Shown: positions 1,252 to 64,000 of the stretch, piece after piece
Layout of the letters: the number at the start of each line of letters is the position of its first letter
Position numbering within the stretch: the first letter of the stretch is position 1
Notes under the pieces: generated by a model
Told to the model about the DNA's origin: nothing
The model's input: the letters and a program-made list of their open reading frames with translations, nothing else
Database searches by the model: none
Source: Myxococcota bacterium
GTDB taxonomy: Bacteria; Myxococcota; B64-G9
NCBI GenBank assembly: GCA_035453905.1
Contig: DAOTDZ010000014.1
Location: 86,452-150,451, forward strand
Direction of reading: 5' to 3'
Length of the DNA: 64,000 nt
Translations under genes and position numbers: made by a program

Positions 1252-1347
1252 GGGGCCATTGTAGCGCAGATCCCTCGCTTTCCCTCCCCTCCTGTCTTTC
1301 ACCTTTATGAATTCCTTTCCTGGTTTTCGGGCTACAGTGGCCCGGCC

Positions 1348-2461: not shown

Positions 2462-2469
2462 GCTTCCCC

Positions 2470-3051: not shown

Positions 3052-3059
3052 GCGGCCTC

Positions 3060-14141: not shown

Positions 14142-14299
14142 GGGGACCTCCTCAGGCGGCGCCGGCGGGCATTCGCCACGCCTGGATCTTTCTAGCATCC
14201 TACCACGTTTCGGGCGGGGCTCGGAGGACCGCGCCGAGACGGTGGACAGCGACCGGGCGCCCGGGTAGGCTGCCCCCCAGGACAAGGAAGAGGTTCGTC

Positions 14300-22070: not shown

Positions 22071-24719
22071 ATGCTCGCTTCCAGGTTGACGACCCTCCTG
22101 GGGATCCTCGGAGTCGCCGCGAGCCTGGGCAGCTGCGGCCCCGAGGGCCCCACCCTCCACGAGCGGCTGGGCCCGCTCCGGCCCGCGCAGCTCGACCGCC
22201 AGGGCCGGCCCATCCTGCCCATCTGGGCCACCGAGCAGGAGCGCCTGGCCGCGCTGCGCGCCGCCCCGCCGCCCGCCGATGATCTCAAGGCCGCGCCCGC
22301 CGCGGGCTACCGGGTGCCGGCGGAGTACGAGCCGACGCAGGCCGTGGTCATGACCTACACCTCCTACGACTACCTGCTGGACGAGATCGCGCCCTACGTG
22401 GCCTCGGCCGGGGCCGAGGTCTGGATGGTGGGCGGTCCGGCCAGCATGTCCGGCGTGCCAGCCGCCCAGTACCGCCGGCTCGCCTGGCCCTACGACTCGG
22501 TCTGGTCGCGGGACTACGGCCCGGTCGGCATCGACGAGGCCAGCCACACGCTCGGCATCGTGGATCCCACCTACCGCCACTACGCCAGCCGGCCGGACGA
22601 CGACGACATCCCCTGCCGGGTGGCCGTGGAGGCGGGCGCCGCCTGCCACACGACCACGCTCATCCTGGACGGCGGCAACTACATGACCGACGGCCGGGGC
22701 TCGGTCTTCCTGACCCGGCGCATCTACGACTGGAACAGCCAGCTCAGCGAGGCCCAGGTGAACCAGCTGCTGCGGGACTACCTGGGCGCCCAGAGCCTGC
22801 ACGTCTTCGACTACGCCGTGGACGAGTACGGCGATCCGGCCGACGGCACCGGGCACATCGACATGTTCGCCAAGCTGCTGCCCGGTTGCGTGGTGCTGGT
22901 GGTCGACACGGACGACGCGCCCTTCGCCGCGGTGTGCGACGCCGCGGCCGCGACCTTCGCCGGCCTCGAGTGCGTGCCCGGCCAGAACTACCAGGTCCTG
23001 CGCGTGCCGGGCTGGTACCAGTCGGACGGCTGGTGGGGGGTCTGGTACACGTACACGAACTCGCTCATCATCAACGACACCGTCCTGGTCCCGTCCTACT
23101 CGGGCGGCCAGGACGCAGCGGCTCGCGCCGTCTACCAGCAGGCCCTGCCGGGCTACACCGTCGCGCTGCTCAACACCGACGAGCCCATCCTGAGCGGCGG
23201 CTCCATCCACTGCATCACCAAGGAGATCCCGTTCATCGAGGACCTGGGCTGCGCCACGCCGGCCGACTGCGATCTGCCCCAGGTCGACCAGCACGCCTGC
23301 ACGGCCGGGGTGTGCGGCATCGTCAGCTGCGACCCGGGCTACGGCGACTGCGACGGCGCGGCGGACGACGGCTGCGAGCAGGACCTGTGGCAGGTCGCCG
23401 CCTGCGGCACGAGCTGCGCCCGGCTGGTGAACTGCCCGAGCGAGCTGCAGCACGCCGCGGGCGAGGGCTGCGCGGCCGGCGCCTGCGACTACGCCAGCTG
23501 CGACGCGGGCTACGGCGACTGCGACGGGGAGCGCGAGGACGGCTGCGAGGCGAACCTGTGGCAGCCCGGGGCCTGCGGCACGACCTGCGCCCAGCGGGTC
23601 GACTGCGCGGCCCTGGTGCAGCACGCCACCGGGCTCGCCTGCGCGGCGGGAGCCTGCGACTACGGGGCCTGCGCCGCGCTGTACGGCGACTGCGACGGCG
23701 ACCGGACCAACGGCTGCGAGCTGGATCTCCGCCTGGACGAGGCGCACTGCGGCGGCTGCCTGACGAGCTGCGCGGACGGCGAGGTGTGCGAGGGCGGCCT
23801 GTGCGAGGTCCCGGCCTGCCCCGCGGGCCTCGCGGACTGCGACGGCCAGCCGGGCGACGGCTGCGAGGTCCAGCTCGGCACCGACGCGGACTGCGCCGGC
23901 TGCGGGGACGACTGCCGGGATCGGTTCGCCCACGCCACCGGCGCGTGCGTCCAGGGCGCCTGCGCGCTGGGCCCGTGCGCGGCCGGCTACGGCGACTGCG
24001 ACGGGAGCGCGGCGGACGGCTGCGAGAGCGAGCACGCCACGGACGAGGCCCACTGCGGCGACTGTCAGACCGCCTGCGCGGCGGGCCAGACCTGCGAGGG
24101 CGGCCTGTGCCGCGACGAGCCCTGCCCCGCGGGTCTCGAGGACTGCGATGGCCAGCCGGGCAACGGCTGCGAGGTCCAGCTCGGCACCGACGCGGACTGC
24201 GCCGGCTGCGGGGACGACTGCCGGGGCCTCTTTCCCCACGGGCAGGGCGCCTGCCTGGCCGGCGCCTGCGCGCTGAGCGCCTGCGAGCCGGGCTTCGCCG
24301 ACTGCGACCTCGAACCGGCCTCGGGCTGCGAGCGCTCGCTCGCCGAGGCCGGCACCTGCGGGGCCTGCAACCGCGCCTGCGCCGCGGGGGAGAGCTGCGT
24401 GCGCTCGGGCGCGAGCTGGACCTGCCAGGGCGGCTGCGCCGACGGCGACGGCGACGGGTTCGCCGACCAGGCCTGCGGCGGTGCCGACTGCAACGACCTG
24501 GCGCCCGGCGTGAACCCGGACGCCGCGGAGCAGTGCAACCTGGCCGACGACGACTGCGACGGGCAGACGGACGAGGACGGGGTGTGCGACCGCCAGCCGG
24601 ACGATGCCAGCGGCTGCGGCTGCGCGGCGTCGGGCGAAGGCGGTCCGGGCGCGGAGCTCGGCCTGCTGCTGCTCGTCGGCCTGGCGGCCGTGGGCCGGCG
24701 GCGGACGGGAGAGAGCTGA
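22071..24719 (+). CDS. Agmatine deiminase / Porphyromonas-type peptidyl-arginine deiminase family enzyme fused to Cys-rich repeats, with a MYXO-CTERM sorting signal
   Basis: RBS GGGAGGAGAGAGG precedes the ATG. The lipoprotein signal is VAASLGSCG. The deiminase fold is marked by WSRDYGP, LDGGNYMTDGRG, TGHIDMFAKLLP and a catalytic Cys in GGSIHCITKEIP. About six repeats of CG(T/D)xCxxxVxC...GxCDYxxCxxGYGDCDGxxxDGCE follow. The C-terminus GCGCAASGEGGPGAELGLLLLVGLAAVGRRRTGES is a MYXO-CTERM tail. Confidence 0.8.
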   Translation: MLASRLTTLLGILGVAASLGSCGPEGPTLHERLGPLRPAQLDRQGRPILPIWATEQERLAALRAAPPPADDLKAAPAAGYRVPAEYEPTQAVVMTYTSYDYLLDEIAPYVASAGAEVWMVGGPASMSGVPAAQYRRLAWPYDSVWSRDYGPVGIDEASHTLGIVDPTYRHYASRPDDDDIPCRVAVEAGAACHTTTLILDGGNYMTDGRGSVFLTRRIYDWNSQLSEAQVNQLLRDYLGAQSLHVFDYAVDEYGDPADGTGHIDMFAKLLPGCVVLVVDTDDAPFAAVCDAAAATFAGLECVPGQNYQVLRVPGWYQSDGWWGVWYTYTNSLIINDTVLVPSYSGGQDAAARAVYQQALPGYTVALLNTDEPILSGGSIHCITKEIPFIEDLGCATPADCDLPQVDQHACTAGVCGIVSCDPGYGDCDGAADDGCEQDLWQVAACGTSCARLVNCPSELQHAAGEGCAAGACDYASCDAGYGDCDGEREDGCEANLWQPGACGTTCAQRVDCAALVQHATGLACAAGACDYGACAALYGDCDGDRTNGCELDLRLDEAHCGGCLTSCADGEVCEGGLCEVPACPAGLADCDGQPGDGCEVQLGTDADCAGCGDDCRDRFAHATGACVQGACALGPCAAGYGDCDGSAADGCESEHATDEAHCGDCQTACAAGQTCEGGLCRDEPCPAGLEDCDGQPGNGCEVQLGTDADCAGCGDDCRGLFPHGQGACLAGACALSACEPGFADCDLEPASGCERSLAEAGTCGACNRACAAGESCVRSGASWTCQGGCADGDGDGFADQACGGADCNDLAPGVNPDAAEQCNLADDDCDGQTDEDGVCDRQPDDASGCGCAASGEGGPGAELGLLLLVGLAAVGRRRTGES

Positions 24720-24791
24720 CGGAGCGGACCTGGCCCTTTGTTGCCAGCGCGGGCGGAATACCACAGAATGGGTCAGCCTCGGGAGGTGCGC

Positions 24792-25997
24792 ATGGGCCGC
24801 AGCGCGTGGGGTGTGCTCGTCCTGGTGCTGGGCGCCTGGCTGACGCTGGCGGGGAATCCTGGCCTGGCACGGGCGGACGGCATGTCCTTCAGGCTGATCG
24901 GCGGCGACGCCGACGTGCGGGCCACGGCCCAGCGGGCCGTCCTGTGGCAACGCGGCGGGACCTGGGAGCTGCACCTGCAGCCGGTCTTCGCGCGCGGGCA
25001 GGGCGCGGCCGCCTGGGTGGTGCCGTTCCCGGTGCGACCCACCGTGTCGGCGGGCAACCCGGACTTCCTCGACCAGCTCGAGGTGGCCACCTCGCCGGTC
25101 TTCCTGCGGGTGTGCGCCGAGGGCGGCGGCTCCTCCTGCTTCGGCTGCATGGACGCGGCCGGGGTCGGGGACGGGGAGGTGCTGGACGGCAGCTCCTTCG
25201 TGCGGGTCTGGGAGCGGGGCCAGGTGGGCGGGCTGGACTACGCGATCCTCTCGGCCCAGGACGGGGACGACCTGGTGGCCTGGCTGGACGCCGAGGGCTT
25301 CGAGGTGCCGGCCGCGGCCGCGGAGCTGCTCGCGGACCTGGAGCTGGAGGGCACCTTCTTCTTCGCCGCGCGGCTGGGGGCCACCCTCGACCCCAGCCTG
25401 CCGCTCGCGCCGGTGCGCTTCGAGCTGCCCGGGCTCGACCCGCCCAGCTACCCGCTGCGGCTGACCGCGGCGGCGGTGCCGGCGGGGCAGAGCCTGGATC
25501 TGACCCTGTGGGTGATCTTCCCGAACAACGAAGGCTGGGTGCCGGACGGCCGCGAGGTGCGGCAGCCCTCCCGGGAGCTCGCGGACCGGGCGGCCCTGGA
25601 CGGGGCCCTGGAGGAGCTCTTCGCCGCCGCTCCGGACGCGCTGGTCTTGCTGCACAGCGCGACCCTGGACGAGACTGGCGCCCTCGAGGGCCAGGTGTGC
25701 GAATGGATGCTGCCGTGCGTGGGCTACGCGGAGGTCGGGCTGGAGGCGCCCGCGGCCTGGGCGCCCGAGATGGAGTACCTCCGGAGCCCGCCCTACCTCG
25801 TGGACCGCTACCAGGCCCGGCTGGGGGCGGGCGGCCTGGAGGCAGACCTGCGTTTCCGGCCGCTCGCAGAGAACGAGTACCTCGGGCGGGTCACCCGCGT
25901 GTACACCCGCTTCACCTGCCGCCAGGAGGGCTCGGCCGGCGCCTGGGTGGCGTTGCTGGCGGCGGGCGTGGCGCTCCGCCTGCGCCGGCGGGCGTGA
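24792..25997 (+). CDS. DUF2330-family secreted protein with a C-terminal TM + Arg-rich anchor (paralog 1)
   Basis: GGGAGG precedes ATG 24792. The signal peptide is GVLVLVLGAWLTLAGNPGLARA. The protein is colinear with the next gene: RAVLW, WELHLQPVF, AAWVVPFPVRP and GNPDFLDQLE. The C-terminus is AWVALLAAGVALRLRRRA. Confidence 0.6.
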   Translation: MGRSAWGVLVLVLGAWLTLAGNPGLARADGMSFRLIGGDADVRATAQRAVLWQRGGTWELHLQPVFARGQGAAAWVVPFPVRPTVSAGNPDFLDQLEVATSPVFLRVCAEGGGSSCFGCMDAAGVGDGEVLDGSSFVRVWERGQVGGLDYAILSAQDGDDLVAWLDAEGFEVPAAAAELLADLELEGTFFFAARLGATLDPSLPLAPVRFELPGLDPPSYPLRLTAAAVPAGQSLDLTLWVIFPNNEGWVPDGREVRQPSRELADRAALDGALEELFAAAPDALVLLHSATLDETGALEGQVCEWMLPCVGYAEVGLEAPAAWAPEMEYLRSPPYLVDRYQARLGAGGLEADLRFRPLAENEYLGRVTRVYTRFTCRQEGSAGAWVALLAAGVALRLRRRA

Positions 25998-26016
25998 CCG
26001 GGTCGGGGAGGCTCGC

Positions 26017-27210
26017 GTGGATCGGCCGGCGTCTCTCGCGCTGCTCGTCGCCCTGCTCGGGGCCGGGTCCGTGGCCCGGGCCGACGGGCTGGCGTTCCGG
26101 GTGGAGGGCGGCCAGGCCGAGGTGCGGCCCACGGCCCAGCGGGCGGTCCTGTGGCTGCGGCGCGGGGTGTGGGAGCTCCACCTGCAGCCCGTGTTCGAGC
26201 GGGAGGCGGGCCGGGCGGCCTGGGTGGTGCCCTTCGCGGTGCGGCCCGAGGTGAGCCTGGGGAACCCCGACTTCCTCGACCAGCTCGAGCTGCTGACCGC
26301 GCCCGTGTTCCTCGAGGTGTGCCGGCCGGAGGAGGAGTCCTGCTTCGGCCAGGGCGGGAGCTCGGACACCGCCGGGGAGGTCCGCGCCGGGACGGCCGCG
26401 CCGGAGGTGTGGGAGCGCGGCCAGGTCGGGACGCTCGACTACGTGATCCTGTCCGCCAGGGACGGAGACGATCTCCTGGCCTGGCTGCGGGCCGAGGGGT
26501 ACGCGGTGCCGAACACCGCCATCATCCCCGTGAGGGTCCTGGCCCGGGAGGGCGCCTTCTTCTTCGCCGCCCGGCTGTCCGCCGGCGTCGATCCGGACCT
26601 GCCGCTGCCGAGCCTGCGTTTCCTGCTGCCCGGCCTGCAGAACCCCGCCTACCCGCTGCGCCTGACGGCAGCCGGGGTCCCGGCCGGCGAGCACCTCGAC
26701 CTCAGCCTGTGGGTGATCACCCCGCTGGGACAGGACTGGCTGCCCGCGGAGCGCCGCGTCGCCTCGCCGCCACCCGCGCTGGACGATGCGGCGGCCCTCG
26801 ACGCGGCCCTGGGGGACATCTACCTGGAGGACCCGGACGGCCTGGCGCTGCTCTACAGCGCTTCGCCGCGGGAGACCGGCGGCTTCGACGGCCAGGTGTG
26901 CGGCTGGCAGTACGGCTGCGTGGACTTCGCGGCGCTGGGCCTGGCGCGGCCCGACGCCTGGTGCCCGGAGCTGCAGCTCGTGCGGGACGACGCCGCCTGG
27001 GTGCAGCGGTTCCAGGCGCGCCTGCACGCGACCGGGCTGACCACGGACCTGCGCCTGCGGCCCCGGGCGGCGACCGAGTACCTCGACCGCGTGGAGCGCG
27101 TCTACCTGCGCTGGGTGTGCCGCGACGCCCAGGCCACGTCCGGCTGGTGGGTCCTGCTGGCCCTGGGGCTGGGGCTCGGGCTGCGGCGGCGCCGGCGCGC
27201 TGGCCCTTGA
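26017..27210 (+). CDS. DUF2330-family secreted protein with a C-terminal TM + Arg-rich anchor (paralog 2)
   Basis: GTG start. About 55 % identity to the preceding gene over the full length. The C-terminus is GWWVLLALGLGLGLRRRRRAGP. Confidence 0.6.
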   Translation: MDRPASLALLVALLGAGSVARADGLAFRVEGGQAEVRPTAQRAVLWLRRGVWELHLQPVFEREAGRAAWVVPFAVRPEVSLGNPDFLDQLELLTAPVFLEVCRPEEESCFGQGGSSDTAGEVRAGTAAPEVWERGQVGTLDYVILSARDGDDLLAWLRAEGYAVPNTAIIPVRVLAREGAFFFAARLSAGVDPDLPLPSLRFLLPGLQNPAYPLRLTAAGVPAGEHLDLSLWVITPLGQDWLPAERRVASPPPALDDAAALDAALGDIYLEDPDGLALLYSASPRETGGFDGQVCGWQYGCVDFAALGLARPDAWCPELQLVRDDAAWVQRFQARLHATGLTTDLRLRPRAATEYLDRVERVYLRWVCRDAQATSGWWVLLALGLGLGLRRRRRAGP

Positions 27211-36855: not shown

Positions 36856-37902
36856 CTACTGGCAATCGGCCGGGCACCGCGTCGCGTTCTCGCCCTTCTT
36901 CGTGTTGCACACGCCGTCGCCGCAGCAGGCGCCCTTGCGCACGCAGTCCGCGGCGCAGGCGGCGCAGGTCTCGCCGCCGGTGCACACGCCGTTGCCGCAC
37001 ACCTCGCCCGTGGGCTCGCAGTCGGGGTCGGCGCCCGGGGCGCAGGCCGCGTTGCACACGCCGTTCGCGGAGCAGTCCGGGGCCGGGGTGTTGCCGGTGA
37101 AGGCGTTGATGTAGCTCTCGAAGGTGTCCGCGCGGCTGCTCACGCCGTAGTCCAGGCAGGCCGCGTCGCCGTAGCTGGTCATGCCGCCCACGTACACGGT
37201 GCCGTTGCGGCTGACGAAGGCCGGGCCGCCCGAGTCGCCGGAGCAGGGGCCGCCCTCGGACAGGGGCTGGTAGTAGTAGAGCCGGTCGGTGCTCAGCAGG
37301 TGGTCCAGGGTGCCCACCACGTGCAGCTTGTCGCCGAAGGCGTACTGGGAACCGCTCTCGACCGTGCCGAAGCCGGCGAAGTCGAGCGCCAGGTGGCCTT
37401 CGTCCGCGGCGGTGAAGCCCAGGCTCTGGGGCAGGGCCGGGACCGGGCTGGCCACGTTCGCGGGCACCGCGCTGGTCAGGCGGGCGAGGGCGATGTCGTT
37501 GGCCATGGTGGTCGAGCTGTAGCCCGGGTGCACCGCGATCGCGGACACCATGTAGAAGTCGCTGTAGCTCAGGGTGCCGGCGTTGTACTCGCGGATCGAG
37601 CTCTGGCCCAGGTAGATGGCCAGGCCCGACGCGCGGGTGCCCTTGAGGCAGTGGGCCGCGGTCAGCACCACGTTCGGGGTGATCAGGGTGCCGGAGCAGA
37701 AGGGGGAGATGCTGATGCCCTGCCTGGAGTTCTGGTGCAGGGAGACCACCGCGTCGTACTCACCGCCCGAGGCGGGCGAGCCGTTGTAGATCGCGTTCTG
37801 GTGCTTGACCAGGTTGTTCTCGGTGGTGAGGCCGTCACCACAGGCCTGGAAGGCCACCGCACCCACGAGCGCCAGCGCGACCAGCATCAGATTCCGCCGC
37901 AT
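36856..37902 (-). CDS. Secreted trypsin-like serine protease (S1 family) with a C-terminal Cys-rich extension
   Basis: The signal peptide is present. The catalytic triad contexts are TAAHC, NDIAL and GDSGGP. Confidence 0.85.
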   Translation of the reverse strand: MRRNLMLVALALVGAVAFQACGDGLTTENNLVKHQNAIYNGSPASGGEYDAVVSLHQNSRQGISISPFCSGTLITPNVVLTAAHCLKGTRASGLAIYLGQSSIREYNAGTLSYSDFYMVSAIAVHPGYSSTTMANDIALARLTSAVPANVASPVPALPQSLGFTAADEGHLALDFAGFGTVESGSQYAFGDKLHVVGTLDHLLSTDRLYYYQPLSEGGPCSGDSGGPAFVSRNGTVYVGGMTSYGDAACLDYGVSSRADTFESYINAFTGNTPAPDCSANGVCNAACAPGADPDCEPTGEVCGNGVCTGGETCAACAADCVRKGACCGDGVCNTKKGENATRCPADCQ

Positions 37903-38197
37903 GAGACTCTCCTCCGTTCCGACCGTTTTCGAACTGTCCGACCCTAGACTTACCTTTTCCCGAAATCCAGAATTTTCTTGCCCCTGGTGCAGGGCGTCAA
38001 TAGCCTACGGATACACGCCGTCACTTCAAGCCTCATGCCAGCCCCAGGCGCCCCGGCCAAGATCTCAATCCACTGAATTCATAGAGTAATTTGCAGTGTA
38101 GGATGTTGTGCTCCGGGGTGATCCTGTAGCCTGAAATTGATCCTTCGAACGCTGGTGTTCTCTTATGGTTCTGAATTTACTATTGTTTATTTCTTGT

Positions 38198-44238: not shown

Positions 44239-45333
44239 TCAGTTGCAGCCGGCCGGAGCGCCGATCACGCCCTCGACGAACTCCATCATCGAGAGCTTCT
44301 CGTTGTCGGGGATGTCCACGCCCTGGGCCACCCACACGCTGCCGTCCTGCTTGTTGATCGGGCCGTAGAACACGTCCCAGGTGCCGGCCACGAGCTCGGC
44401 CTGCTTGGTGGCCACCTCGTCCCGGACGGCCTGCGTCACCGCGTCGTTGTAGGCGCCCACGGCCACGATGCCGTCCGCGATCGAGCCCCAGTAGCTGTGG
44501 CTGGTCCAGGTGCCGTCCTTGACCGCCTGCACGCGGCGCGAGTAGTAGGGGCCCCAGTGCCAGACGGCGCTGGTCAGGATGGCGGTGGGCACGAAGCTCA
44601 GCGTGTCCGAGTCATAGCCGATGGCCCAGGCGCCGGCGGCCGCGGCGCGCTCGGCGGTGGCGGTCGAGTCCTGGTGCTGCGCCAGGAGATCGCAGCCGGC
44701 GGCCAGCAGCTCGTCGGCCGCGGCGGCCTCCAGGGTCGGATCGAACCAGGTGCAGGTCCAGCGCACCTCGACCGTGGCGGTCGGGTTCACGCTGCGCACG
44801 CCCAGGGTGAAGGCGTTGAGCATGCGGATGACCTCGGGGATGGGGAAGGCCGCCACGTAGCCGATGCGGCCGTTCGTGGTCATGCGCCCGGCCACGATGC
44901 CGGTCAGGTAGCGGGCCTGGTACATGCGGCCGAAGTAGTTGGCCAGGTTCGTGCCGGCCTTGTAGCCCGAGCAGTGCTCGAACTTGACCTCGGGGAACTG
45001 CGCGGCCGCCGTCTCGGTGGGATCCATGTAGCCGAAGGAGGTGGTGAAGATGATGTCGTTGCCGTCCGCCACCAGATCTGCGAGCACCGGGCCGAGGGCC
45101 TCGGCGGTCTCGGCCACGCTGTCGACGTAGGTGGTCTCCACGTCGTCCACCTCGAGCTCCACCTGCAGCCGGCCCTGGTCGTGGGCGTAGGTCCAGCCCA
45201 GATCACCGGGCTGGCTGATGTACACCCAGGCCGCCTTGGTCGTGGTGTCCTCGTCTCCGCCGTCGTCGCAGGCCGCGATCAGGCCGCCGAACGCAAACAC
45301 GCCCAGAACCACACCCCACATCTTGGAACGCAT
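44239..45333 (-). CDS. BMP-family (PnrA/Med-like) ABC-transporter substrate-binding lipoprotein
   Basis: GGAGG precedes ATG 45333. The lipobox is LIAAC. BMP-family features include WVYISQPGDLGWTY and GYVAAFPIPEV. Confidence 0.75.
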   Translation of the reverse strand: MRSKMWGVVLGVFAFGGLIAACDDGGDEDTTTKAAWVYISQPGDLGWTYAHDQGRLQVELEVDDVETTYVDSVAETAEALGPVLADLVADGNDIIFTTSFGYMDPTETAAAQFPEVKFEHCSGYKAGTNLANYFGRMYQARYLTGIVAGRMTTNGRIGYVAAFPIPEVIRMLNAFTLGVRSVNPTATVEVRWTCTWFDPTLEAAAADELLAAGCDLLAQHQDSTATAERAAAAGAWAIGYDSDTLSFVPTAILTSAVWHWGPYYSRRVQAVKDGTWTSHSYWGSIADGIVAVGAYNDAVTQAVRDEVATKQAELVAGTWDVFYGPINKQDGSVWVAQGVDIPDNEKLSMMEFVEGVIGAPAGCN

Positions 45334-45359
45334 GTCGTCCTCCCTCTTGCGTTTCCCTC

Positions 45360-46586
45360 TTACTCGAGGGCTTCGATCCGGTCCTGCCGGATGGTCCATA
45401 GGTCCACACGCCCGTCCATCAGATCCCCCCGCTCGTCCATGTCGACCGTCCCCGTCGTCCCCTCGTAGTCGAGGTTCATCCCCTGAGCCGCCAGCTCCAT
45501 GGCCTGCTCCAGATCGTTCCAGCCGAGCTGCTCTCCGGGCGCCGAGGCGACCTGGCCGACCTGGTCGCGGATCGCGGCGCCCGAGGGGGCCGCGCCGGAC
45601 TCCTCGGCGGCCCGGGCCATGGCCAGCACCAGGACCATGGCCGCGTCGTAGTAGAAGTAGGCCGCGTTGAGCGGCGCCTCGCCCTCCCAGCGGCTGGCGA
45701 AGTCCTCGGCGAAGGCGTCGGTGATCGAGGCCTGCCCCAGCGCGGGCGCCACGCCCACCGCGCCGTCCAGGACGCCCGGCGGCACGTTGTCCAGGAACAC
45801 GTCGGCCTTGAGCGCGGGCGCCAGGTAGAAGCGGGCCTGACCGCCGCGCACGCTCCACTCCTGGACGATCTGCGCCCCGGTGCTGGCGTAGGACATCAGC
45901 GCGATGGCGTCGGGCTTGGACTCCAGGATCGGGGTGAGCAGCCGGTTGAAGTCGGGCGGCACCCCGGGCTGGAAGGAGACCGAGGTCAGGGTCTGGATGT
46001 TGCGGCCGATGAGCTCGTTGACCAGGATGTTGTTCAGCCCCAGGCCGTACAGATCGCCGACGTAGATGATCTGGGCCAGGCGCACCCCGTCGGCCTGCAT
46101 CCGTTCGGCCATGGCGCGGCCCAGCTCGCGGGCGGTGGGGCAGGTGCGGAACCAGAAGCCGTTGTCGGCCAGCGTGCTGAAGAAGGGCGAGGTCACTCCG
46201 CCCGAGATGACCACCACGTTGCGGGTGGCGGCCACGGGCGCGAGCTGCTTGCCCATCTCCTCGTCCTGGGGCCCGAGGATGGCCACCACGCCCTCGTCCA
46301 TCAGCTCCTGGGCGGCGTCGAAGCCGCGCCTGAGATCGGAGTGGGTGTCCTTGGTGACCAGCCACAGGGGCCGCCCGGCGATGCCGCCGGCCTCGTTGAC
46401 CTGATCGAGGACCTGCAGGATGGCGCGCTCGATGTTGGCGCCCTCGGAGGCGATGTCCCCGGTGAAGGGCAGCAGCGCCCCCACCTTGAGGGCGTCCGCG
46501 GGAGGGCCTCCGGCCGGCTCCACGCAGCCCGCGGCCAGGAGGATGAGGCCAAGCGCCAGCCAGGCCGGGCAGCGTTCGGTGCTCAT
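45360..46586 (-). CDS. Type-I periplasmic binding protein (LivJ/branched-chain-amino-acid-type ABC substrate-binding lipoprotein)
   Basis: ATG 46586 is 2 nt after the stop of the upstream TonB-receptor gene. The lipobox is LLAAGC. LKVGALLPFTGDIASEG is typical of the Leu/Ile/Val-binding family. Confidence 0.75.
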   Translation of the reverse strand: MSTERCPAWLALGLILLAAGCVEPAGGPPADALKVGALLPFTGDIASEGANIERAILQVLDQVNEAGGIAGRPLWLVTKDTHSDLRRGFDAAQELMDEGVVAILGPQDEEMGKQLAPVAATRNVVVISGGVTSPFFSTLADNGFWFRTCPTARELGRAMAERMQADGVRLAQIIYVGDLYGLGLNNILVNELIGRNIQTLTSVSFQPGVPPDFNRLLTPILESKPDAIALMSYASTGAQIVQEWSVRGGQARFYLAPALKADVFLDNVPPGVLDGAVGVAPALGQASITDAFAEDFASRWEGEAPLNAAYFYYDAAMVLVLAMARAAEESGAAPSGAAIRDQVGQVASAPGEQLGWNDLEQAMELAAQGMNLDYEGTTGTVDMDERGDLMDGRVDLWTIRQDRIEALE

Positions 46587-46588
46587 GG

Positions 46589-48757
46589 TCACAGCTCCAT
46601 CCACAGCTGGAGGTAAATCGTGCGCGGCGCCAGCGGGTAGTCGACCCCGCCATAGCCGGGGTCCGGACCCTCGACGCCGATCAGGTTGGTGCCGATCAGC
46701 CGGATCTCGGACTTGTGCCCCTGCAGCAGCTCCAGATCGAAGAGCGCCAGGGAGGCGTTCAGCATGACGTACGGATCGAGCGCGTAGACCTCGCCCGCCT
46801 CCAGCGCGTTCTCGTCGCTGGCGTCCCGTGTGTCCACGTAGCTGAGCTCCAGCGTGAGCCGCAGCGGCAGCCAGGGGAGCTGGCCGCGCACGCCCGCGTG
46901 CATCAGCCAGGTCGGGTAGGTGCTGCTCTCGGATCCGAGCAGGTCGGCCACGTAGCCCGGCTGCCCCAGGTCGCGGACCAGGTAAGCCATGGACAGGTTC
47001 AGGTAGCCCTGGATCCACCGCTTCCAGCGCGCCCTGATCTCGGTCTCCCAGGACAGCAGGCCCATCTCGGCCACGTTGCGGGCCACCTTGTTCACGCCCT
47101 GCAGGGTGAACTCGGCCTTGTCCTGCAGGTAGGAGTAGGCCAGATCGGTGCTCACCTGGAGGAAGTCCCAGGGCTCGTACGAGACCTGCAGCTCGAAGGT
47201 GTCCACGCGCTGCGGCTCGAGGTCCGGGTTGCCCTGGATGTCGCCCGAGCGCATGGGCTCGCCGTACAGCAGCAGCGGGGCCGGCGCCTTGAAGGCGTGG
47301 CCGTACAGCAGCTTGAGGTAGAGCTTGTCGAGCGGCTGGTACACCGCGCCCGCGCGGCCGCTGACCTGGCTGCCGTAGATGTTGTGCCAGTCGTAGCGGA
47401 TGCCGCCGGTCAGGCTGAGCGTCTTCTCGATCGGCGTCCAGGACACCTGGAGGTAGGCGTCCGGGTTCAGGAAGGCCTCGATGCCGGCGTGGGTGGAGGT
47501 GGACTCGCGCACGTCGCCCGGCTCCAGGGAGCCGACCTTCGTCTTGAGCACGTGCAGGTACGAGGGCAGCAGCTCCTCGTCGTAGATCACGCCCACCCCG
47601 GCCACGAACGCCAGCGAGGGCAGGGCCTGGTACTGCGCGCCCAGGTGCAGCTCGCCGCCCTGGTAGCGGTACTTGCGCTCCACGTAGTAGATGTCGCTGC
47701 CGAGCTCGATGCGGTCGCGGGGGCCGGGGCTGCCGCGGAAGTACAGCCCGTCCACCTCGAGGCGCCAGTCCGTGGACAGCTTGAACTCGCCGCGCAGGTC
47801 GACGTATCCCTGCTGGATCGAGACCTGGTTATCGATGGTGCGGCCGGACTCGTCCAGGCCGCTGCCGAGCTGGAGCCAGTCGGCGAACTCCGCCCCGCGA
47901 TCGAGGTAGGACATGTAGCCGGTCATGGACACCTGGCCGGCGTCGCCCAGGCCATAGGCCAGCTTGAGCAAGCCCGTACCCGAGGTCTGCTCCAGGCCCT
48001 CGGCCCGGGTGTCGTTGGCCCGCGAGGCGGGCAGCTTCGGGGACGGGGAAGACCCGGGCAGGGTCAGCTCGGACAGGTCGCGGTAACCCAGCCGCCCGGC
48101 CACCAGGACGTCCAGCTCGCCCGTCTTGAAACCGACCGCCAGGTCGGTGCTCCCGCCAAGCTTGGTCCCGTCGAAGCCGCCGCCCAGGATCACCCGGCCG
48201 CCCGCGAGGTCGTCGCCCTTGAGGGTGATGATGTTCACCACGCCCAGGAAGGCGTCCGCGCCGTACAAGGCCGAGGCCGGTCCGCGGATGACCTCCACCC
48301 GCTCGATGGCGCTCATGGGGATCAGCTCCGGGCCGAGCCAGTTGGCCCCGGTCTGGCGCATGGCTACGGTGTGGCCGTCGATCATCACCTTGATGAGACC
48401 GCTCTCGGAGCGCAGCCCGCTGCCCACGCCGCGCACGCCCACGTCCGGGGAGATGTGGTTGTCGACCAGGTACACCCCGGCCACGTGGCGCAGCACGTCC
48501 GCGACGGAGTCGTAGCCCCAGGCCCGGATCTCCTGGGCGTTCAACACGGTGACCACGGCCGGAGCCTCCTCGACGGTCTGCTCGGTCTTGGTGGCCGAGA
48601 CCACCACGTTGAGCAGGTCCTCGAGGTTCAACTCCTCGAAGTCCTTGACGTCATCCCCGATGTCGCCCTGCGCTTCCTCCTCGGCCTGGCCAGCCAGAGG
48701 CAGTCCTAACCCGATCGAGGCAACCAGGATGGAGACGAACCGGAGTGGCGTTAGCAT
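46589..48757 (-). CDS. TonB-dependent outer-membrane receptor
   Basis: ATG is at 48757. A signal peptide is followed by a plug (VVVSATKTEQTVEEAPAVVTVLNAQEI, IRGPASALYGADAFLGVVNIIT). A barrel follows, and the C-terminus is aromatic (YLQLWMEL). Confidence 0.8.
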   Translation of the reverse strand: MLTPLRFVSILVASIGLGLPLAGQAEEEAQGDIGDDVKDFEELNLEDLLNVVVSATKTEQTVEEAPAVVTVLNAQEIRAWGYDSVADVLRHVAGVYLVDNHISPDVGVRGVGSGLRSESGLIKVMIDGHTVAMRQTGANWLGPELIPMSAIERVEVIRGPASALYGADAFLGVVNIITLKGDDLAGGRVILGGGFDGTKLGGSTDLAVGFKTGELDVLVAGRLGYRDLSELTLPGSSPSPKLPASRANDTRAEGLEQTSGTGLLKLAYGLGDAGQVSMTGYMSYLDRGAEFADWLQLGSGLDESGRTIDNQVSIQQGYVDLRGEFKLSTDWRLEVDGLYFRGSPGPRDRIELGSDIYYVERKYRYQGGELHLGAQYQALPSLAFVAGVGVIYDEELLPSYLHVLKTKVGSLEPGDVRESTSTHAGIEAFLNPDAYLQVSWTPIEKTLSLTGGIRYDWHNIYGSQVSGRAGAVYQPLDKLYLKLLYGHAFKAPAPLLLYGEPMRSGDIQGNPDLEPQRVDTFELQVSYEPWDFLQVSTDLAYSYLQDKAEFTLQGVNKVARNVAEMGLLSWETEIRARWKRWIQGYLNLSMAYLVRDLGQPGYVADLLGSESSTYPTWLMHAGVRGQLPWLPLRLTLELSYVDTRDASDENALEAGEVYALDPYVMLNASLALFDLELLQGHKSEIRLIGTNLIGVEGPDPGYGGVDYPLAPRTIYLQLWMEL

Positions 48758-48915
48758 GCGCGCGTTCTCTCGGGGCAAGTGTTCATGTACCGGACTTGGT
48801 GTATGCCAGGATCGCCCTTTTTGCAATACCTATCTTCAATCATTTCCGGAGACTGGTTCCAATTCTGGAGCCGAACGGGTAGCATCGGCTGTCGCCCACG
48901 CGGAGGTGGATTCCG

Positions 48916-49404
48916 GTGAGAGCAGCTCCCCTGGCGGGATTCTTCCTGGTGATGCTCCCTGGCCTGGCCCTGGCCGCTGATCCGGCGGCCGCACCGGTGC
49001 AGCAGCAGCACCGGCTGGTGACGCTCGAGCTCGACGGGCCAGCGTTGCGGGTCCTGGCCTCCCAGGTCGTCCCCCTGCCGTTGCCCAAGCGCCGGGGAGG
49101 GGAGGCGGTCGGCTCCGGCCACCCCTGGCGCGCCCGGCTGCTCGGCCCCGGAGGCGCGGTGCTGCACACCCTCGGCCTCGGCGATCCCACCGAGCTGCGC
49201 GTGGAGCACGCCGACGACGCGGGCCGGATCCGCGCCCAGCGCGTCCGCCGGGAGGGCCCGGTGGTGTTCTGCCTGCGCCTGCCGCTGACCGCAGGCCGGC
49301 TCGAGCTCCAGCGGCTCGATCCCGCCCGGCCGCGGGAGCGGCGGGCCCCGGAGGACGCCTGGCAGGGCGTCGGCGCGGTGGAGCTCCCGGGGGTGGCGCC
49401 GTGA
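48916..49404 (+). CDS. Hypothetical small secreted protein
   Basis: GTG start. The signal is LAGFFLVMLPGLALA. The stop overlaps the GTG start of the M64 gene as GTGA. Confidence 0.4.
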   Translation: MRAAPLAGFFLVMLPGLALAADPAAAPVQQQHRLVTLELDGPALRVLASQVVPLPLPKRRGGEAVGSGHPWRARLLGPGGAVLHTLGLGDPTELRVEHADDAGRIRAQRVRREGPVVFCLRLPLTAGRLELQRLDPARPRERRAPEDAWQGVGAVELPGVAP

Positions 49405-51953
49405 GCCGCCCGCGCGCGGCCCTGGCCGCCTGCCTGGTCAGCCTGGGCCTGGCGCTGTCCGCCGCGGCCTACGACGTGGAGACCGTGCAGACCTCCGGGG
49501 ACTCCGCCAACCGCATCGATCTGGTCATCCTGGGGGACGGCTACAGGGTCGAGGACCAGGCCAAGCTGACGAGCGACGTGCAGTCCTTCCTCACGCGCTT
49601 CTGGCAGCAGACCCCCTACGCGGAGTACCGCAACTTCTTCAACGTGAAGCTCATCCACGTCATCTCGAACGAGAACGGGGCGGACAACGGCTCGTACGGC
49701 GCGGTGCGCGACACGGCCCTGGGCGCCTACTACAACTGCTACAACATCGATCGCCTGATCTGCCTCGACACCTGGGCCGTGTACCAGGCGGCCAACGCGG
49801 ACGCGCCCGAGTGGGACTTCCTGTTCGTGATGGTGAACGATCCCAAATACGGGGGCTCCGGGGGCTCGATCTCGGTCTTCTCCGTGCACGCCCTGGCTGG
49901 AGACATCGCCATCCACGAGTTCGGGCACTCGTTCGGCGGGCTGGCCGACGAGTACGAGGACGCCTACCCGGGCTACCCGGGCTGCGGCTCGGACTGCCCG
50001 GAGCCCAACGTGACCACCCGGACGGTGCGCGAGGAGGTCAAGTGGAACCCGTGGATCGACGCGGCCACGCCGGTTCCCACGCCCGAGACCGGGACCTACT
50101 GGGACGCGGTGGGGGTGTTCGAGGGAGCCCGCTACCAGACCACGGGTGTCTTCCGCCCGAAGCAGGCCTGCTTCATGCGCCAGTACGGAGTCCCGTTCTG
50201 TGAGGTGTGCGAGGAGGCCCTGGTGCTGTCGGTCTACCAGCAGGTCTCGCCGCTCGACAGCGCCTCCCCGGCCGGCCCGGTCAGCCTCGGGAGCTGCGAC
50301 CTGGCCAGCTTCGAGGTCGCCTACCCGCGGCCGGTGCCGGACACCGTGGAGGTCACCTGGCGCGTGGACGGCCAGGTCGTCCAGACGGGTGGCGCGGGGT
50401 TCGAGCTGGACGCCTCCGGGCTGTCGATCGGCGCCCATCAGCTCGAGGCCGAGATCGCCGATCTGACTCCGCTGGTGCGAACCGACCCCTCGTCGCTCCT
50501 GGTGGAGCGCCAGATCTGGACGGTCCAGGTGACCGGGACGCCGGTCTGCCTCATCGGCGGGGAGTGCATCCCCGATGGCACGCTGAACCCCGCCAACCCC
50601 TGCGAGATCTGCCAGGCGGCGAGCCAGCCCGGCGCCTGGAGCCCGCTCTCCGGGGTGGCCTGCGGCGACGGCCTCTACTGCAACGGCGCGGAGGCATGCC
50701 AGGCCGGCGCCTGCCAGGCCGGCGCGGCGCCCTGCCAGGACGACGGTCTGGCCTGCACGCTCACCTGCGACGAGGCCGGGCAGCGCTGCAACCTGCCCCA
50801 GGCAGGCTGGTGCGCCATCGCCGGGGTGTGCAGGACGGCGGGCGAGGCCGAGCCCGGCAACCCCTGCCGCACCTGCCAGCCGGGCGTGGATCCCTCGGCC
50901 TGGGTCCCCGACGACAGCGCCACCTGCGGCGACGGGGAGTTCTGCGACGGCCCGGAGACCTGCCAGGGCGGCGTCTGCCAGGCCGGCGCGGCGCCCTGCC
51001 AGGACGACGGCCTGGCCTGCACGGACACCTGCGACGAGGCCGGGCAGCGCTGCGACGTGCCCCAGGCGGGCTGGTGTGCCATCGCCGGGGTGTGCGCGAC
51101 CGCCGGGGAGGCCGAGCCCGGGAACCCCTGCCGGACCTGCCAGCCCGGGCTGGACCCGCTGGCCTGGACGGCGGACGATGGCCGGGCCTGCGAGGACGGC
51201 CTCTACTGCAACGGCGCGGAGACCTGCCTGGCCGGCGCGTGCCAGGCCGGCGCGGCGCCCTGCCAGGACGACGGCCTGGCCTGCACGGACACCTGCGACG
51301 AGGCCGGGCAGCGCTGCGACGTGCCCCAGGCGGGCTGGTGTGCCATCGCCGGGGTGTGCGCGACCGCCGGGGAGGCCGAGCCCGGGAACCCCTGCCGGAC
51401 CTGCCAGCCCGGGCTGGACCCGCTCGCCTGGAGCCCGGACGACACGGCGGGCTGCGACGACGCGCGGCCCTGCACGACCAGCGACCATTGCCAGGCGGGC
51501 GCCTGCGTGGGCCAGCTCAGCCCGGGCTGCTGCACCGTGGCGGCCGACTGCGACGACGGGCTCGCCTGCACCCAGGACGCGTGCGACGCGGGCCAGAGCG
51601 CTTGCTCCAGCTCGCTGTCGGCCGGGGCCTGCCTGGTGGACGGCGTCTGCGCCCTCGCGGGAGAGGCCTCGCCGGGCAACGCCTGCCTGACCTGTCAGCC
51701 CGGCACGGCGCCGCGGGCCTGGACGTCGGCCGAGGGCGCGGCCTGCGACGATGGCGACCCGTGCACCGCGGGGGGCGCCTGCCTGGCGGGCGCCTGCGCG
51801 CCGGGTGAGCGCCTGTGCGACCCGAGTTGCCCCTGCGAGGAGCCCGCCATGAAGGGCGGCTGTGGGTGCGGGGCGGGGACGGGCCAGGCGCCGGGCGCCC
51901 TGCTGTCCGTGCTGCTCGGGTGGCTGTGGGTGCGGCGCCGGCCGCGGGCGTGA
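49401..51953 (+). CDS. M64-family (IgA-peptidase-like) zinc metallopeptidase fused to three 88-aa Cys-rich repeats, with a MYXO-CTERM sorting signal
   Basis: The signal peptide is present. The zinc site is HEFGHSFGGLADEY. Three 88-aa repeats have the form CGDGxYCNGAETC.AGACQAGAAPCQDDGLACTDTCDEAGQRCDVPQAGWCAIAGVC. The C-terminus GGCGCGAGTGQAPGALLSVLLGWLWVRRRPRA is a MYXO-CTERM tail. The antisense ORF 48840..51488 is rejected. Confidence 0.8.
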   Translation: MSRPRAALAACLVSLGLALSAAAYDVETVQTSGDSANRIDLVILGDGYRVEDQAKLTSDVQSFLTRFWQQTPYAEYRNFFNVKLIHVISNENGADNGSYGAVRDTALGAYYNCYNIDRLICLDTWAVYQAANADAPEWDFLFVMVNDPKYGGSGGSISVFSVHALAGDIAIHEFGHSFGGLADEYEDAYPGYPGCGSDCPEPNVTTRTVREEVKWNPWIDAATPVPTPETGTYWDAVGVFEGARYQTTGVFRPKQACFMRQYGVPFCEVCEEALVLSVYQQVSPLDSASPAGPVSLGSCDLASFEVAYPRPVPDTVEVTWRVDGQVVQTGGAGFELDASGLSIGAHQLEAEIADLTPLVRTDPSSLLVERQIWTVQVTGTPVCLIGGECIPDGTLNPANPCEICQAASQPGAWSPLSGVACGDGLYCNGAEACQAGACQAGAAPCQDDGLACTLTCDEAGQRCNLPQAGWCAIAGVCRTAGEAEPGNPCRTCQPGVDPSAWVPDDSATCGDGEFCDGPETCQGGVCQAGAAPCQDDGLACTDTCDEAGQRCDVPQAGWCAIAGVCATAGEAEPGNPCRTCQPGLDPLAWTADDGRACEDGLYCNGAETCLAGACQAGAAPCQDDGLACTDTCDEAGQRCDVPQAGWCAIAGVCATAGEAEPGNPCRTCQPGLDPLAWSPDDTAGCDDARPCTTSDHCQAGACVGQLSPGCCTVAADCDDGLACTQDACDAGQSACSSSLSAGACLVDGVCALAGEASPGNACLTCQPGTAPRAWTSAEGAACDDGDPCTAGGACLAGACAPGERLCDPSCPCEEPAMKGGCGCGAGTGQAPGALLSVLLGWLWVRRRPRA
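50650..51441. repeat. Three tandem 264-bp repeats inside the M64 gene; copies 2 and 3 share an identical stretch of more than 180 bp
   Basis: Direct comparison of 50976-51160 with 51240-51423 shows identical sequence. Copy 1 (about 50650-50913) is diverged. Confidence 0.75.
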
Positions 51954-55715: not shown

Positions 55716-56744
55716 ATGCGCTCGATCCTGCCTGCCATCGTGGTGACCTGCTCGTGCCTGGCCTGGTCCGCGGGGGGCTGCGGTGGCTCCGAGGACCCGC
55801 TGCCGTTGCCGGAGGTGGAGGTGACCCTGGCGAACCTGTGCGATGAGATGGCCGAGGTGAGCTGCTACAACATGTTCACCTGCTGCACCGGCGAGCAGAT
55901 CGAGGACGTCCTCGGCATCGCCATCTCGCTCGAGCCCGCGGACTGCCGCCGGGACATGGCGCTGCTCTGCCAGGAGCGCTTCGCCCCGATCCTGTGGGCG
56001 GCCCAGAAGGGCTCGGTGGGCGTCGACACCCTGGCGATCGGCGGGTGCCTGCAGTTGATGCTGGTGCGGGGCGCCTGCTTCGAGCACGTGAGCACCATTC
56101 CCTGGGAGGAGGCCTGCGAGGCGGACCAGGTGGTGGGCACGGTCCAGCCGGGCGGCGCCTGCGTGTACGGGTGGGAGTGCGCCAACGGCGGCTTCTGCGC
56201 TCCGGACGCCCGCTGCGTGGCCCTGCCGGGCCCGGGGCAGGAGTGCGACGACGTGTGCGCCGCGGGCCTGTTCTGCAACCGGCGGACCTACCGCTGCGAG
56301 AACCAGCTCGGCTCGGGCCAGGCCTGCAACGACTCCTCCTTCTGCCAGGCGGGCCTGTTCTGCAAGTTCGACGGCGAGGGCGCGGGCGCCTGCACCTCCC
56401 CGCGCGCCGTGGGGCAGCCCTGCGAGGGCGACCAGGACTGCGCCACCAGCTACTGCCAGCCGGGCGTGTGCGCCGGGAGCACCCTCGAGTGCTTCGAGAA
56501 CTCGGACTGCCCGGGCCAGTGCGTGGGCTCGGACTCATCCTGCTTCAGCGACTACGACTGCGGCAGCCGCTGCTCCATCTCGCACGACCCCTGCTACTCG
56601 GACTACGACTGCACCGAGGGCGGGTCGTGCGTGCCCGACACCTGCGACCAGCAGGGCTGCTCCGGGCAGCCGGTGTGCGCGGAGCGCTGGCTGATCCTGG
56701 ACTACTGCGAGGGCACCCTGGGGATGTTCCTGGGCGAGGACTGA
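55716..56744 (+). CDS. Cys-rich secreted lipoprotein, hypothetical
   Basis: GGGAGGAGACCC precedes the ATG. The signal is AIVVTCSCLAWSAGGCGG. The protein has about 50 cysteines in about 340 aa, in CxxGxFC-type spacing. Confidence 0.6.
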   Translation: MRSILPAIVVTCSCLAWSAGGCGGSEDPLPLPEVEVTLANLCDEMAEVSCYNMFTCCTGEQIEDVLGIAISLEPADCRRDMALLCQERFAPILWAAQKGSVGVDTLAIGGCLQLMLVRGACFEHVSTIPWEEACEADQVVGTVQPGGACVYGWECANGGFCAPDARCVALPGPGQECDDVCAAGLFCNRRTYRCENQLGSGQACNDSSFCQAGLFCKFDGEGAGACTSPRAVGQPCEGDQDCATSYCQPGVCAGSTLECFENSDCPGQCVGSDSSCFSDYDCGSRCSISHDPCYSDYDCTEGGSCVPDTCDQQGCSGQPVCAERWLILDYCEGTLGMFLGED

Positions 56745-62247: not shown

Positions 62248-63921
62248 TCAGTCGATGCCGTCGTCCATGAACAGGGTGCAGACCGAGCCGTCGGCCCGGG
62301 GGCAGGTGAAGTACATGGTGATGGAGGCCATGATCGGGTTGACCGTGCCGGTGCAGCCGCTGGCGGTGTAGATGGTCTCGTGATCGATGCAGCCGCCCGC
62401 GCCCAGCACGTCCGCCGCGACCTGCTCGAAGGCCAGGCTGCACCCGGTCTGCGCCACCGGGATCGGCAGCTCGGGCGGAGCCGTCCCGGCCAGGCAGTCG
62501 CCGCTCACCCAGTAGGAGCGGGCCACCTGCGGGCAGGACACCGCGTCGCAACCCTCGCTGCCCACGCAGTCCCCCGGGCAGTTGCAGCGGGTCTCGCCCT
62601 GGCCGCAGGTCCCGTCCCCGCAGCGGGCGCACACGAAGCAGGGGCAGTTGACGCCCATGCACGCCAGGGTCACGTCGTCCAGGACGGTGAAGGGGATGGG
62701 GGTCAGGCCGGCGCAGCACTTCCCCTCCGTGTCCGGGTCCTCGAACTGCCCGCCCTCGGCCACGCAGCCCGGCTCGACGCACAGGCCGGTCTGGGGGTCG
62801 CACTGGCCGTCGCCGCACACGCCGTCCATCAGGCAGGCCTGGAAGATGAAGCAAGAGGCGTCACAGCCCTCGCAGCCGCAGCCCTCGGCGCCGTACGGTC
62901 CCGGGCAGGTGCAGTCGCAGATGCCGGTGCAGGCGGCCGTGCACATGGGCGAGGCGTCGCAGGTGGCCGCGTCCGGGAGCCCGGAGCAGTTCGTGTTGCG
63001 GCAGTCCACCACGCACTGACCGTCCGCGGGCTGGCACACGAAGCCCTCGGCGCAGCCGGCCGGGGAGGCGTGGCACAGGCAGGGATCGGCGAACCACTCG
63101 ATGGGGTACCACCTGCCGTCCTGGCCGCAGCTGTAGCAGCCCGGCTCCTCGGCCAGGTGGTTGCCGCAGGCGCAGGGCTGGGTCTCCCCGGGCACGCACT
63201 CGGGCACCGGGCAGTCCGCCCCGCAGGTGCAGAAGTTCTCCTCGGGGCCGCACACGTCGTCCCCGCAGGGCAGGCACACGTAGCACAGGCAGTCGAACGA
63301 GTCGCAGGTGAGCTCGCCCTGGACCACCATGGGCATGCTGTCGGTCATCTTCTCCAGCCCCTCGCAGCAGCGCTGGGCGCCGTCGAAGTCCACGAAGCGG
63401 TCGCCGAGCCCGTGGCAGTCGCTCTGGCACTGGAGCTCCGGCGAGCCGACGCACTCCCAGCGCCCGTCCGCGCCGCAGGTGCACCAGGGCACGCTGGTGC
63501 CGTCCGCGCAGGCGTAAGGGCGCACACCCCCGGGCACGCACTCGCCGCAGTCTTCGGCGCAGATGCAGGGGTCCTCGCCCGCGCCGCAGATCCCGTCGCC
63601 GCAGGCCACGCACACGGTCACCAGGGCGTCGAAGGAGACGCAGCCCCCGCCAGCCGGATCGTAGGGGGTGTACTCGCGGGCGGCCAGGCCCTCGCAGCAG
63701 GGGGTCTGGGCCGGGGTGAGGTTCACCGCGCGCTCTCCGGCCTCGACGCAGTTCGGCTCGCACACGCAGTGCCCGGCCGCCTCGTCGCACACCGAGGGGC
63801 AGTGCTGGATGGTCATGCACGGCTCGTCCGTCTGGCAGGGCACCTTGCACTCGCAGCGCCGCTCCGCGTTGCAGAAGGCCGGGCAGTTCAGCACCTGGCA
63901 GTCCTCGTCATCCGCGCACAT
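62248..63921 (-). CDS. Extremely Cys-rich secreted protein (about 16 % Cys), hypothetical; the N-terminus may extend beyond the listed start
   Basis: CxC/CxxC patterns are periodic (CGDGICG, CGDDVCG, CGDGTCG, CGDGQCD). No signal peptide is seen from the listed Met, so the true start may be upstream of 63921 or off the window. Confidence 0.45.
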   Translation of the reverse strand: MCADDEDCQVLNCPAFCNAERRCECKVPCQTDEPCMTIQHCPSVCDEAAGHCVCEPNCVEAGERAVNLTPAQTPCCEGLAAREYTPYDPAGGGCVSFDALVTVCVACGDGICGAGEDPCICAEDCGECVPGGVRPYACADGTSVPWCTCGADGRWECVGSPELQCQSDCHGLGDRFVDFDGAQRCCEGLEKMTDSMPMVVQGELTCDSFDCLCYVCLPCGDDVCGPEENFCTCGADCPVPECVPGETQPCACGNHLAEEPGCYSCGQDGRWYPIEWFADPCLCHASPAGCAEGFVCQPADGQCVVDCRNTNCSGLPDAATCDASPMCTAACTGICDCTCPGPYGAEGCGCEGCDASCFIFQACLMDGVCGDGQCDPQTGLCVEPGCVAEGGQFEDPDTEGKCCAGLTPIPFTVLDDVTLACMGVNCPCFVCARCGDGTCGQGETRCNCPGDCVGSEGCDAVSCPQVARSYWVSGDCLAGTAPPELPIPVAQTGCSLAFEQVAADVLGAGGCIDHETIYTASGCTGTVNPIMASITMYFTCPRADGSVCTLFMDDGID

Positions 63922-64000
63922 GTCGACGCAGTGGCACTGCTCGTCCGAGCCGCAGTAAGCCTGGCAGTTGAGCGCCTGGCAGTCCGCGGTTCCGCGGCAG

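Follow-up and report, generated by a model that had tools for sequence, protein, structure and literature searches.

We propose that the gene at 49401-51953 (+) of the window, the whole 64,000-nucleotide stretch of contig DAOTDZ010000014.1 analysed here, codes for an igalysin-family (MEROPS M64) zinc endopeptidase at the cell surface of an uncultured Myxococcota bacterium, that this protein is lipid-anchored on a stalk of Cys-rich modules, and that the array encoding the stalk has been homogenised by intragenic recombination. As a whole we consider this model likely. [quoted passage not shown] Lipidation of the invariant Cys, removal of the helix by a myxosortase and transfer of the folded protein onto the surface of the cell through the type II secretion system would complete its sorting; the MYXO-CTERM sorting pathway has been described (PMC11980579). 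At the surface the head, formed by the catalytic domain and an immunoglobulin (Ig)-like beta-sandwich, may be kept off the membrane by five disulfide-rich modules, by analogy with the stalk of TraA. The underlying array of 264-bp units would evolve in concert by gene conversion or unequal exchange, with a 185-bp tract of identity as its latest event. The state in which the two copies of this tract show no mismatch at all is most likely exaggerated, copies that differ at 2-3 sites having probably been collapsed in assembly.

The protease head and its C-terminal signal

By all of its sequence features and by its predicted fold the product of 49401-51953 is a genuine M64 peptidase, as the original prediction had supposed. 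The profile search that it had suggested matches Pfam Peptidase_M64 (PF09471) to aa (amino acids) 29-229 of the 850-aa product with 176.2 bits (E = 1.1e-51; cut-off 26), and phmmer aligns aa 31-274 with the Bacteroides M64 structures 4DF9 (E = 4e-33) and 3P1V (E = 3e-28). An AlphaFold2 (AF2) model of the whole protein, built on 64 homologues, has a mean predicted local distance difference test score (pLDDT) of 84, rising to about 98 (about 97-98) in the catalytic domain, which spans aa ~25-280 (49473-50240, +). Foldseek places this model with 9QDI, 4DF9 and 3P1V (E = 1e-23 to 1e-21, root-mean-square deviation 2.4-2.8 A over ~265 columns), which includes the fold of BF3526, and with the Thomasclavelia ramosa IgAse (E = 5e-14). 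Igalysins are defined by a HExxHxxxGxxD motif, with Asp as the third ligand and an extra residue before the Gly, that is followed by Glu and Tyr, and by a CxMR Met-turn (PMC12237041). The zinc-binding motif of the window protein reads H172-E-F-G-H176-S-F-G-G180-L-A-D183-E184-Y185 (49914-49955, +), with H172, E173, H176, D183 and E184 invariant in an alignment of 64 homologues, and its Met-turn reads C257-F-M259-R260 (50169-50180, +), with C257 and M259 invariant in the alignment. The catalytic domain is followed by an all-beta, Ig/FN3-like sandwich at aa ~285-378 (50253-50534, +), for which the AF2 model shows strands at aa 287-378 (pLDDT about 96-98) and Foldseek returns FN3-like and PKD-like neighbours over ~100 columns.

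The gene begins with GTG, and no other in-frame start separates this codon from the stop before it; the G+C content of the window is ~72% throughout. The product is 100% identical to HRY95894.1, which is encoded on a 214-kb contig and entered as 'MAG TPA: M64 family metallopeptidase [Myxococcota bacterium]' (MAG, metagenome-assembled genome). A Sec signal peptide can be read directly at aa 1-23 (49401-49469, +), a region in which the AF2 model places a helix at aa 4-18. Cleavage is predicted between AAA and YD, and the mature part of the orthologues begins at the same YDVE, directly after their signal peptides. At the other end of the protein lies a MYXO-CTERM-type signal (51855-51950, +), with a GGCGCG signature containing the Cys, a hydrophobic helix and RRRPRA. 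[quoted passage not shown] Similar tails end about 79/120 of the closest M64 homologues, as counted with a rough regular expression, and several M64 homologues have been named MYXO-CTERM proteins by the Joint Genome Institute (JGI). The tethered layout put forward in the original prediction, from enzyme head through Cys-rich repeats to a MYXO-CTERM-type tail, is thus readable in the sequence.

The module array, its identity tract and the assemblies

Between the sandwich and the C-terminal signal, tblastn and a hidden Markov model (HMM) of the module locate five copies of a Cys-rich unit, comprising three full modules of 88 aa with 12 Cys each, one extended and one truncated, where the original prediction had counted three modules of 88 aa. 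Module 1 covers aa 383-470 (50547-50810, +), module 2 aa 471-558 (50811-51074, +), which modelled alone by AF2 reaches a pLDDT of 92.9, and module 3 aa 559-646 (51075-51338, +), which is a mosaic whose middle resembles module 1 and whose 3' part equals that of module 2. Module 4 is extended by an additional Cys-rich insert (aa 647-741; 51339-51623, +), an extended unit that is also present in the homologue P0008, and module 5 is truncated (aa 744-~806; 51630-51818, +). Tandem Repeats Finder (TRF) reports a period of 264 with 3.0 copies and 88% matches at 50659-51444. The minus-strand open reading frames (ORFs) inside the repeats (50675-51082 and 51203-51679) are mirror-frame ORFs of the kind typical of high-GC DNA.

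The 88-aa module is common, yet uncurated. None of the modules of the window matches a Pfam family at E <= 10, including PF00526 (Dicty_CTDC) and DUF4215 (PF13948), and the module has no match in NCBIfam or the PDB. An exhaustive search with the module HMM over 1.84 billion cluster representatives (50% identity clusters) finds it in 5,728 representatives at E <= 1e-3 and in 449 at E <= 1e-30, with up to 70 matched stretches per protein; an earlier word-index profile search with the module had returned 4 proteins only, owing to a limit of the index. Carriers with names are hypothetical proteins of Polyangiales and Myxococcota, a 'MYXO-CTERM domain-containing protein' and a subtilisin-like convertase, and in a sample of 40 module proteins the partner domains include TIG, beta-helix, malectin, LTD and others, with 4/40 also carrying Dicty_CTDC. 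More distant relatives of the protease have between 0 and 3 full modules. In L003, an uncultured Myxococcaceae MAG (7000-7700), a PGxDAAQ low-complexity tandem repeat stands in place of the Cys modules; an assembly gap, written as a run of N, splits this repeat, after which the MYXO-CTERM signal continues in another frame. The case of L003 illustrates that the linker is interchangeable and that assemblies break at repeats.

The longest exact run at an offset of 264 measures 185 bp, with 50976-51160 (+) equal to 51240-51424 (+). The original prediction had recognised this identity between modules 2 and 3 as more than 180 bp, ending it one base short of 51424, and had offered two readings of it, a very recent in-frame tandem duplication of 264 bp or ongoing gene conversion. 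In the register defined by the Cys residues the tract consists of the 3' 99 nt of unit 2 and the 5' 86 nt of unit 3, which equal the 3' 99 nt of unit 3 and the 5' 86 nt of unit 4. The units are otherwise 77-85% identical to one another, and a 185-bp repeat lies far beyond chance because 0.85^185 is about 9e-14. The rest of the period (50897-50975 versus 51161-51239) matches at 55/79 positions, which amounts to 24 differences and 70% identity, and the contrast between 0/185 mismatches in the tract and 24/79 in the adjoining segment has a Fisher p of 1.6e-14. This 79-bp segment of unit 3 is moreover nearer to unit 1 (61/79) than to unit 2 (55/79). It could be argued that the modules resemble one another only through purifying selection on a disulfide scaffold, with no DNA passing between units, and the 18 columns, mostly Cys, Gly and Asp, that are invariant across 24 modules would agree with this. 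Such selection does not account for synonymous sites that are all identical across the 61 codons of the tract, for modules that cluster by genome and not by position, or for an abrupt drop from 100% to 70% identity within one unit, and we give the explanation next to no credence.

The array itself is old because six orthologues at 51-65% identity to the window protein (P0001), namely P0002-P0005, P0008 and P0010, carry three full modules each, and P0008 has the same layout as the window protein, with three full modules, an extended one and a terminal one. When 27 modules are placed in a neighbour-joining tree, those of the same protein come together (all three units of P0001, P0003 and P0008; units 2+3 of P0002 and P0004), and the mean between-protein identity of modules is the same for equal positions (51%) as for unequal ones (50%) to within one percentage point; this grouping, with equal and unequal positions alike, implies concerted evolution. 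Exact runs at offset 264 also occur in L004 (129, 65, 59 and 58 bp, together with a 254-bp near-identical block) and in L007 (48, 34 and 33 bp), and L005 and L009 show no identity tracts at this offset. That one 264-bp unit was very recently duplicated in frame, adding the third module, is a reading with which the TRF period of 264 with 3.0 copies and the exact repeat would agree. A new tandem copy, whether made by slippage or by unequal crossover, must however leave 264 bp of identity, and here 185 bp are identical and the remaining 79 bp differ at 24 sites; three full modules are already present in the six orthologues, and the protein is 850 aa in all assemblies of the genome of the window. 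We regard a recent duplication as very unlikely and conclude that gene conversion, or an exchange inside the gene equivalent to it, produced the tract in an array that is itself old. Gene conversion is thereby the better of the two alternatives first offered, given the 0/185 and 24/79 mismatches and the clustering of modules by genome.

How recent and how perfect the tract is depends on the assemblies. The genome of the window has been assembled independently at least 11 times, and our comparison is one of assembled contigs. The exact product of the ORF directly upstream of the protease gene is found on 11 contigs, and five variants on at least 11 contigs, all of 850 aa, make up the 90% cluster of the protease. 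Stalk length thus shows no variation among the spanning assemblies and protein variants of this genome, and the variation between strains that had been envisaged is not supported; module number varies between more distant relatives. Over 5.5-7.8 kb the independent contigs depart from the window at no position other than the paralogous sites of the tract, 51077/51085 in copy 1 and 51341/51349 in copy 2 (and 51373, whose counterpart in copy 1 is the variable site 51109). If T/C at such a pair of sites is called a and C/T is called b, the window is a,a and L010/L017 (metaSPAdes, 4x), together with two NCBI MAG proteins, are b,b, in each case with 0 tract mismatches. Most other assemblies have 51341 C and 51349 T beside an unchanged copy 1; the JGI contigs L015 and L016 (5 contigs) and P0283 are accordingly a,b, with 2 tract mismatches and a longest run of 101 bp, and L011 (MEGAHIT k141) has T/C in copy 1 and C/T plus 51373 C in copy 2, giving 3 tract mismatches. 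The zero-mismatch tract is a minority state among the assemblies. The concern that the identical stretch might be an assembly artefact was therefore partly justified: the tandem arrangement and the module count are solid, and it is the perfection of the identity that most assemblies do not share.

We lean towards the view that the perfect 185-bp identity is a product of assembly, a bubble popped by a de Bruijn assembler where the copies would in truth differ at 2-3 sites. Of about 11 contigs of the same genome seven or eight are a,b, including the five JGI contigs (215-319 kb) and the MEGAHIT k141 assembly, and the window (a,a) and L010/L017 (b,b, 4x) each hold one variant in both copies, as collapse predicts, with everything else identical over the 5.5-7.8 kb. 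A large k is needed to resolve the longest exact repeat of the a,b state, which measures 101 bp; L012, a Logan contig, is broken within unit 1 (window position 50740); and the lengths of the contig of the window (214,451 bp) and of a JGI contig (215,218 bp) hint that the former may be a re-assembly of the same reads. Against collapse it can be said that bidirectional gene conversion in a clonal population would give these three haplotypes (a,b; a,a; b,b) as well. Collapse is compatible with the model proposed here, as it bears only on the recency and perfection of the tract, and the case for conversion within the array stands either way because a tract at least 98% identical lies beside a neighbour that is 70% identical. 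A search of metagenome contigs with the exact DNA pattern over both tract junctions gave no match, which is uninformative given that the identical sequence was retrieved by protein look-up.

Several points weigh against the model of a surface igalysin on a homogenised stalk. The MYXO-CTERM model TIGR03901 scores 16.4 bits on the protease against a cut-off of 20 (E = 0.0091, aa 819-847). The modules are proposed to act as a stalk by analogy and from a structural model, and the module is without a solved structural relative. Further exact copies of 264 bp may be hidden by the assemblers, a possibility that the k141 assembly L011 argues against.

A candidate upstream partner and other genes of the window

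Directly upstream of the protease gene lies an ORF of 162 aa with a signal peptide (48916-49404, +), whose TGA stop and the GTG start of the protease overlap as GTGA. Its product has no match in Pfam, NCBIfam or the PDB. Homologues stand directly 5' of the M64 gene in L001, L002, L003, L004, L005, L007 and L009, and the 4-bp overlap of start and stop (ATGA/GTGA) recurs in L005, L007 and L009. In other proteins the same domain is fused to the peptidase itself, at the N-terminus of M64 in P0011 (E = 1e-15) and at its C-terminus in P0074 (Geothrix), P0083, P0100, P0109 and P0119. Being encoded by separate genes in one lineage and fused in another, the domain points to an unrecognised accessory partner of M64 peptidases, and the upstream ORF is a candidate accessory, inhibitor or pro-domain whose translation would be coupled to that of the protease by the GTGA overlap. 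It may also take the place of the N-terminal domain of the Bacteroides M64 proteins, a relationship for which Pfam, a profile search of the PDB and hhalign against P0034 gave no support.

The original prediction had further seen in the protease and in a second protein of the window a family of enzymes on Cys-repeat stalks. The second protein is a PAD_porph deiminase-type protein (agmatine/peptidyl-arginine; 22071-24719, +) with ~450 aa of a different Cys-rich repeat (CxxGYGDCDG...GCE) that gives a weak MXAN_6577-like match, a MopE metal-binding motif and a MYXO-CTERM signal that scores 23.3 bits, above the cut-off. The layout is indeed common to both enzymes, but their stalks are not homologous, the HMM of the M64 module having no match to any other ORF of the window. 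Further along, two adjacent paralogous ORFs (24720-25997, +, and ~26000-27210, +) end in tails of the form ...C(R)(Q/D)...hydrophobic stretch...RRRR, with a single Cys, a transmembrane helix and clustered Arg residues. The tails resemble a C-terminal sorting signal of a variant, Cys-containing type, and no NCBIfam model matches them.

Secreted Cys-rich proteins are densely packed in the window. A 2,169-aa protein (7791-14297, -) consists of 10% Cys and has five choice-of-anchor D domains and MXAN_6577-like Cys-rich repeats, and an ORF that runs past the end of the window (62251-63999, -) has 16% Cys, a G+C content at third codon positions (GC3) of 0.97 and no Pfam or NCBIfam match. A trypsin-family protease with a Cys-rich C-terminal tail is encoded at 36859-38004 (-), and a 342-aa Cys-rich lipoprotein-like ORF of no family at 55716-56744 (+). 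Divergent from the protease operon and upstream of it are genes for a TonB-dependent receptor, a Peripla_BP_6 protein and a Bmp-family binding protein (44239-48826, -; in L004 at 830-5308). We rejected these genes as a functional uptake locus acting with the protease, their synteny being confined to the closest relative, L004, and likewise rejected the downstream 143-aa ORF as part of the protease unit, its conservation also being confined to L004.

Meaning and comparison with known systems

The finding is of little weight by itself: GenBank already lists the protein by name, and its enzyme family, its sorting signal, the head-on-stalk layout and tandem repeats that evolve in concert were all known before. 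It may serve as a worked example of how short-read MAGs can write near-identical intragenic repeats with a false perfect identity, which calls for caution when 'recent duplications' are dated from a single assembly. Two by-products may prove of wider use, namely an 88-aa Cys-rich module with about 5,700 clusters that is covered by neither Pfam, NCBIfam nor the PDB and for which there is a confident AF2 model, and a conserved partner domain of M64 that belongs to no family, lies in an upstream gene in the clade of the window and is fused to either end of the enzyme elsewhere. If the three haplotypes are real, a natural clonal population has been caught in two-way gene conversion inside the stalk of a surface protein. 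It is unlikely, in our judgement, that this holds together with two further propositions, that the module is a stalk domain of new fold in thousands of Myxococcota surface proteins and that the upstream ORF is a dedicated M64 partner, acting as inhibitor, chaperone or pro-domain in trans.

The closest known systems are the igalysins of gut bacteria, BF3526 (4DF9/9QDI), BACOVA_00663 (3P1V) and the T. ramosa IgAse (9QDH, 9I4Z, 9EKK, 9QA6), with which the window protein shares the fold, the zinc motif with its Glu and Tyr, and the CxMR turn. In the Bacteroides M64 chains about 150 residues precede the catalytic domain, whereas the window protein has no N-terminal domain in the same chain. The C-terminal part of the IgAse contains wrapping, zinc-binding and LPXTG-like segments (PMC12237041), in place of which the window protein has its Cys-module stalk and MYXO-CTERM signal. 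Specificity for IgA is not expected in an environmental Myxococcota bacterium.

In layout the nearest counterpart is TraA of Myxococcus xanthus, described in 2012, in which a PA14 head is followed by a 'rigid stalk' of Cys-rich tandem repeats and a MYXO-CTERM surface anchor (PMC3325183; PMC11980579). The window protein shares this order of functional head, Cys-rich tandem-repeat stalk and MYXO-CTERM anchor, but carries a protease where TraA carries a lectin-like PA14 receptor head, and a repeat family other than TIGR04201; a scan of the window protease against NCBIfam at E <= 1 returns MYXO-CTERM only and no TIGR04201. The Dictyostelium repeat PF00526 resembles the module in its CxDGxxC(T/N)xxxxC-type motif, matches two of the hits of the module profile and occurs in the 4/40 module proteins mentioned above, whereas the window modules do not match PF00526 even at E <= 10.

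Surface proteins of Gram-positive cocci, such as alpha C/Rib and SasG/Aap, contain near-identical intragenic DNA repeats that are homogenised by recombination and that frequently change in copy number between strains. The protease gene of the window differs from these in that it has the same length in 11 assemblies and in that only part of its repeat unit has been homogenised.

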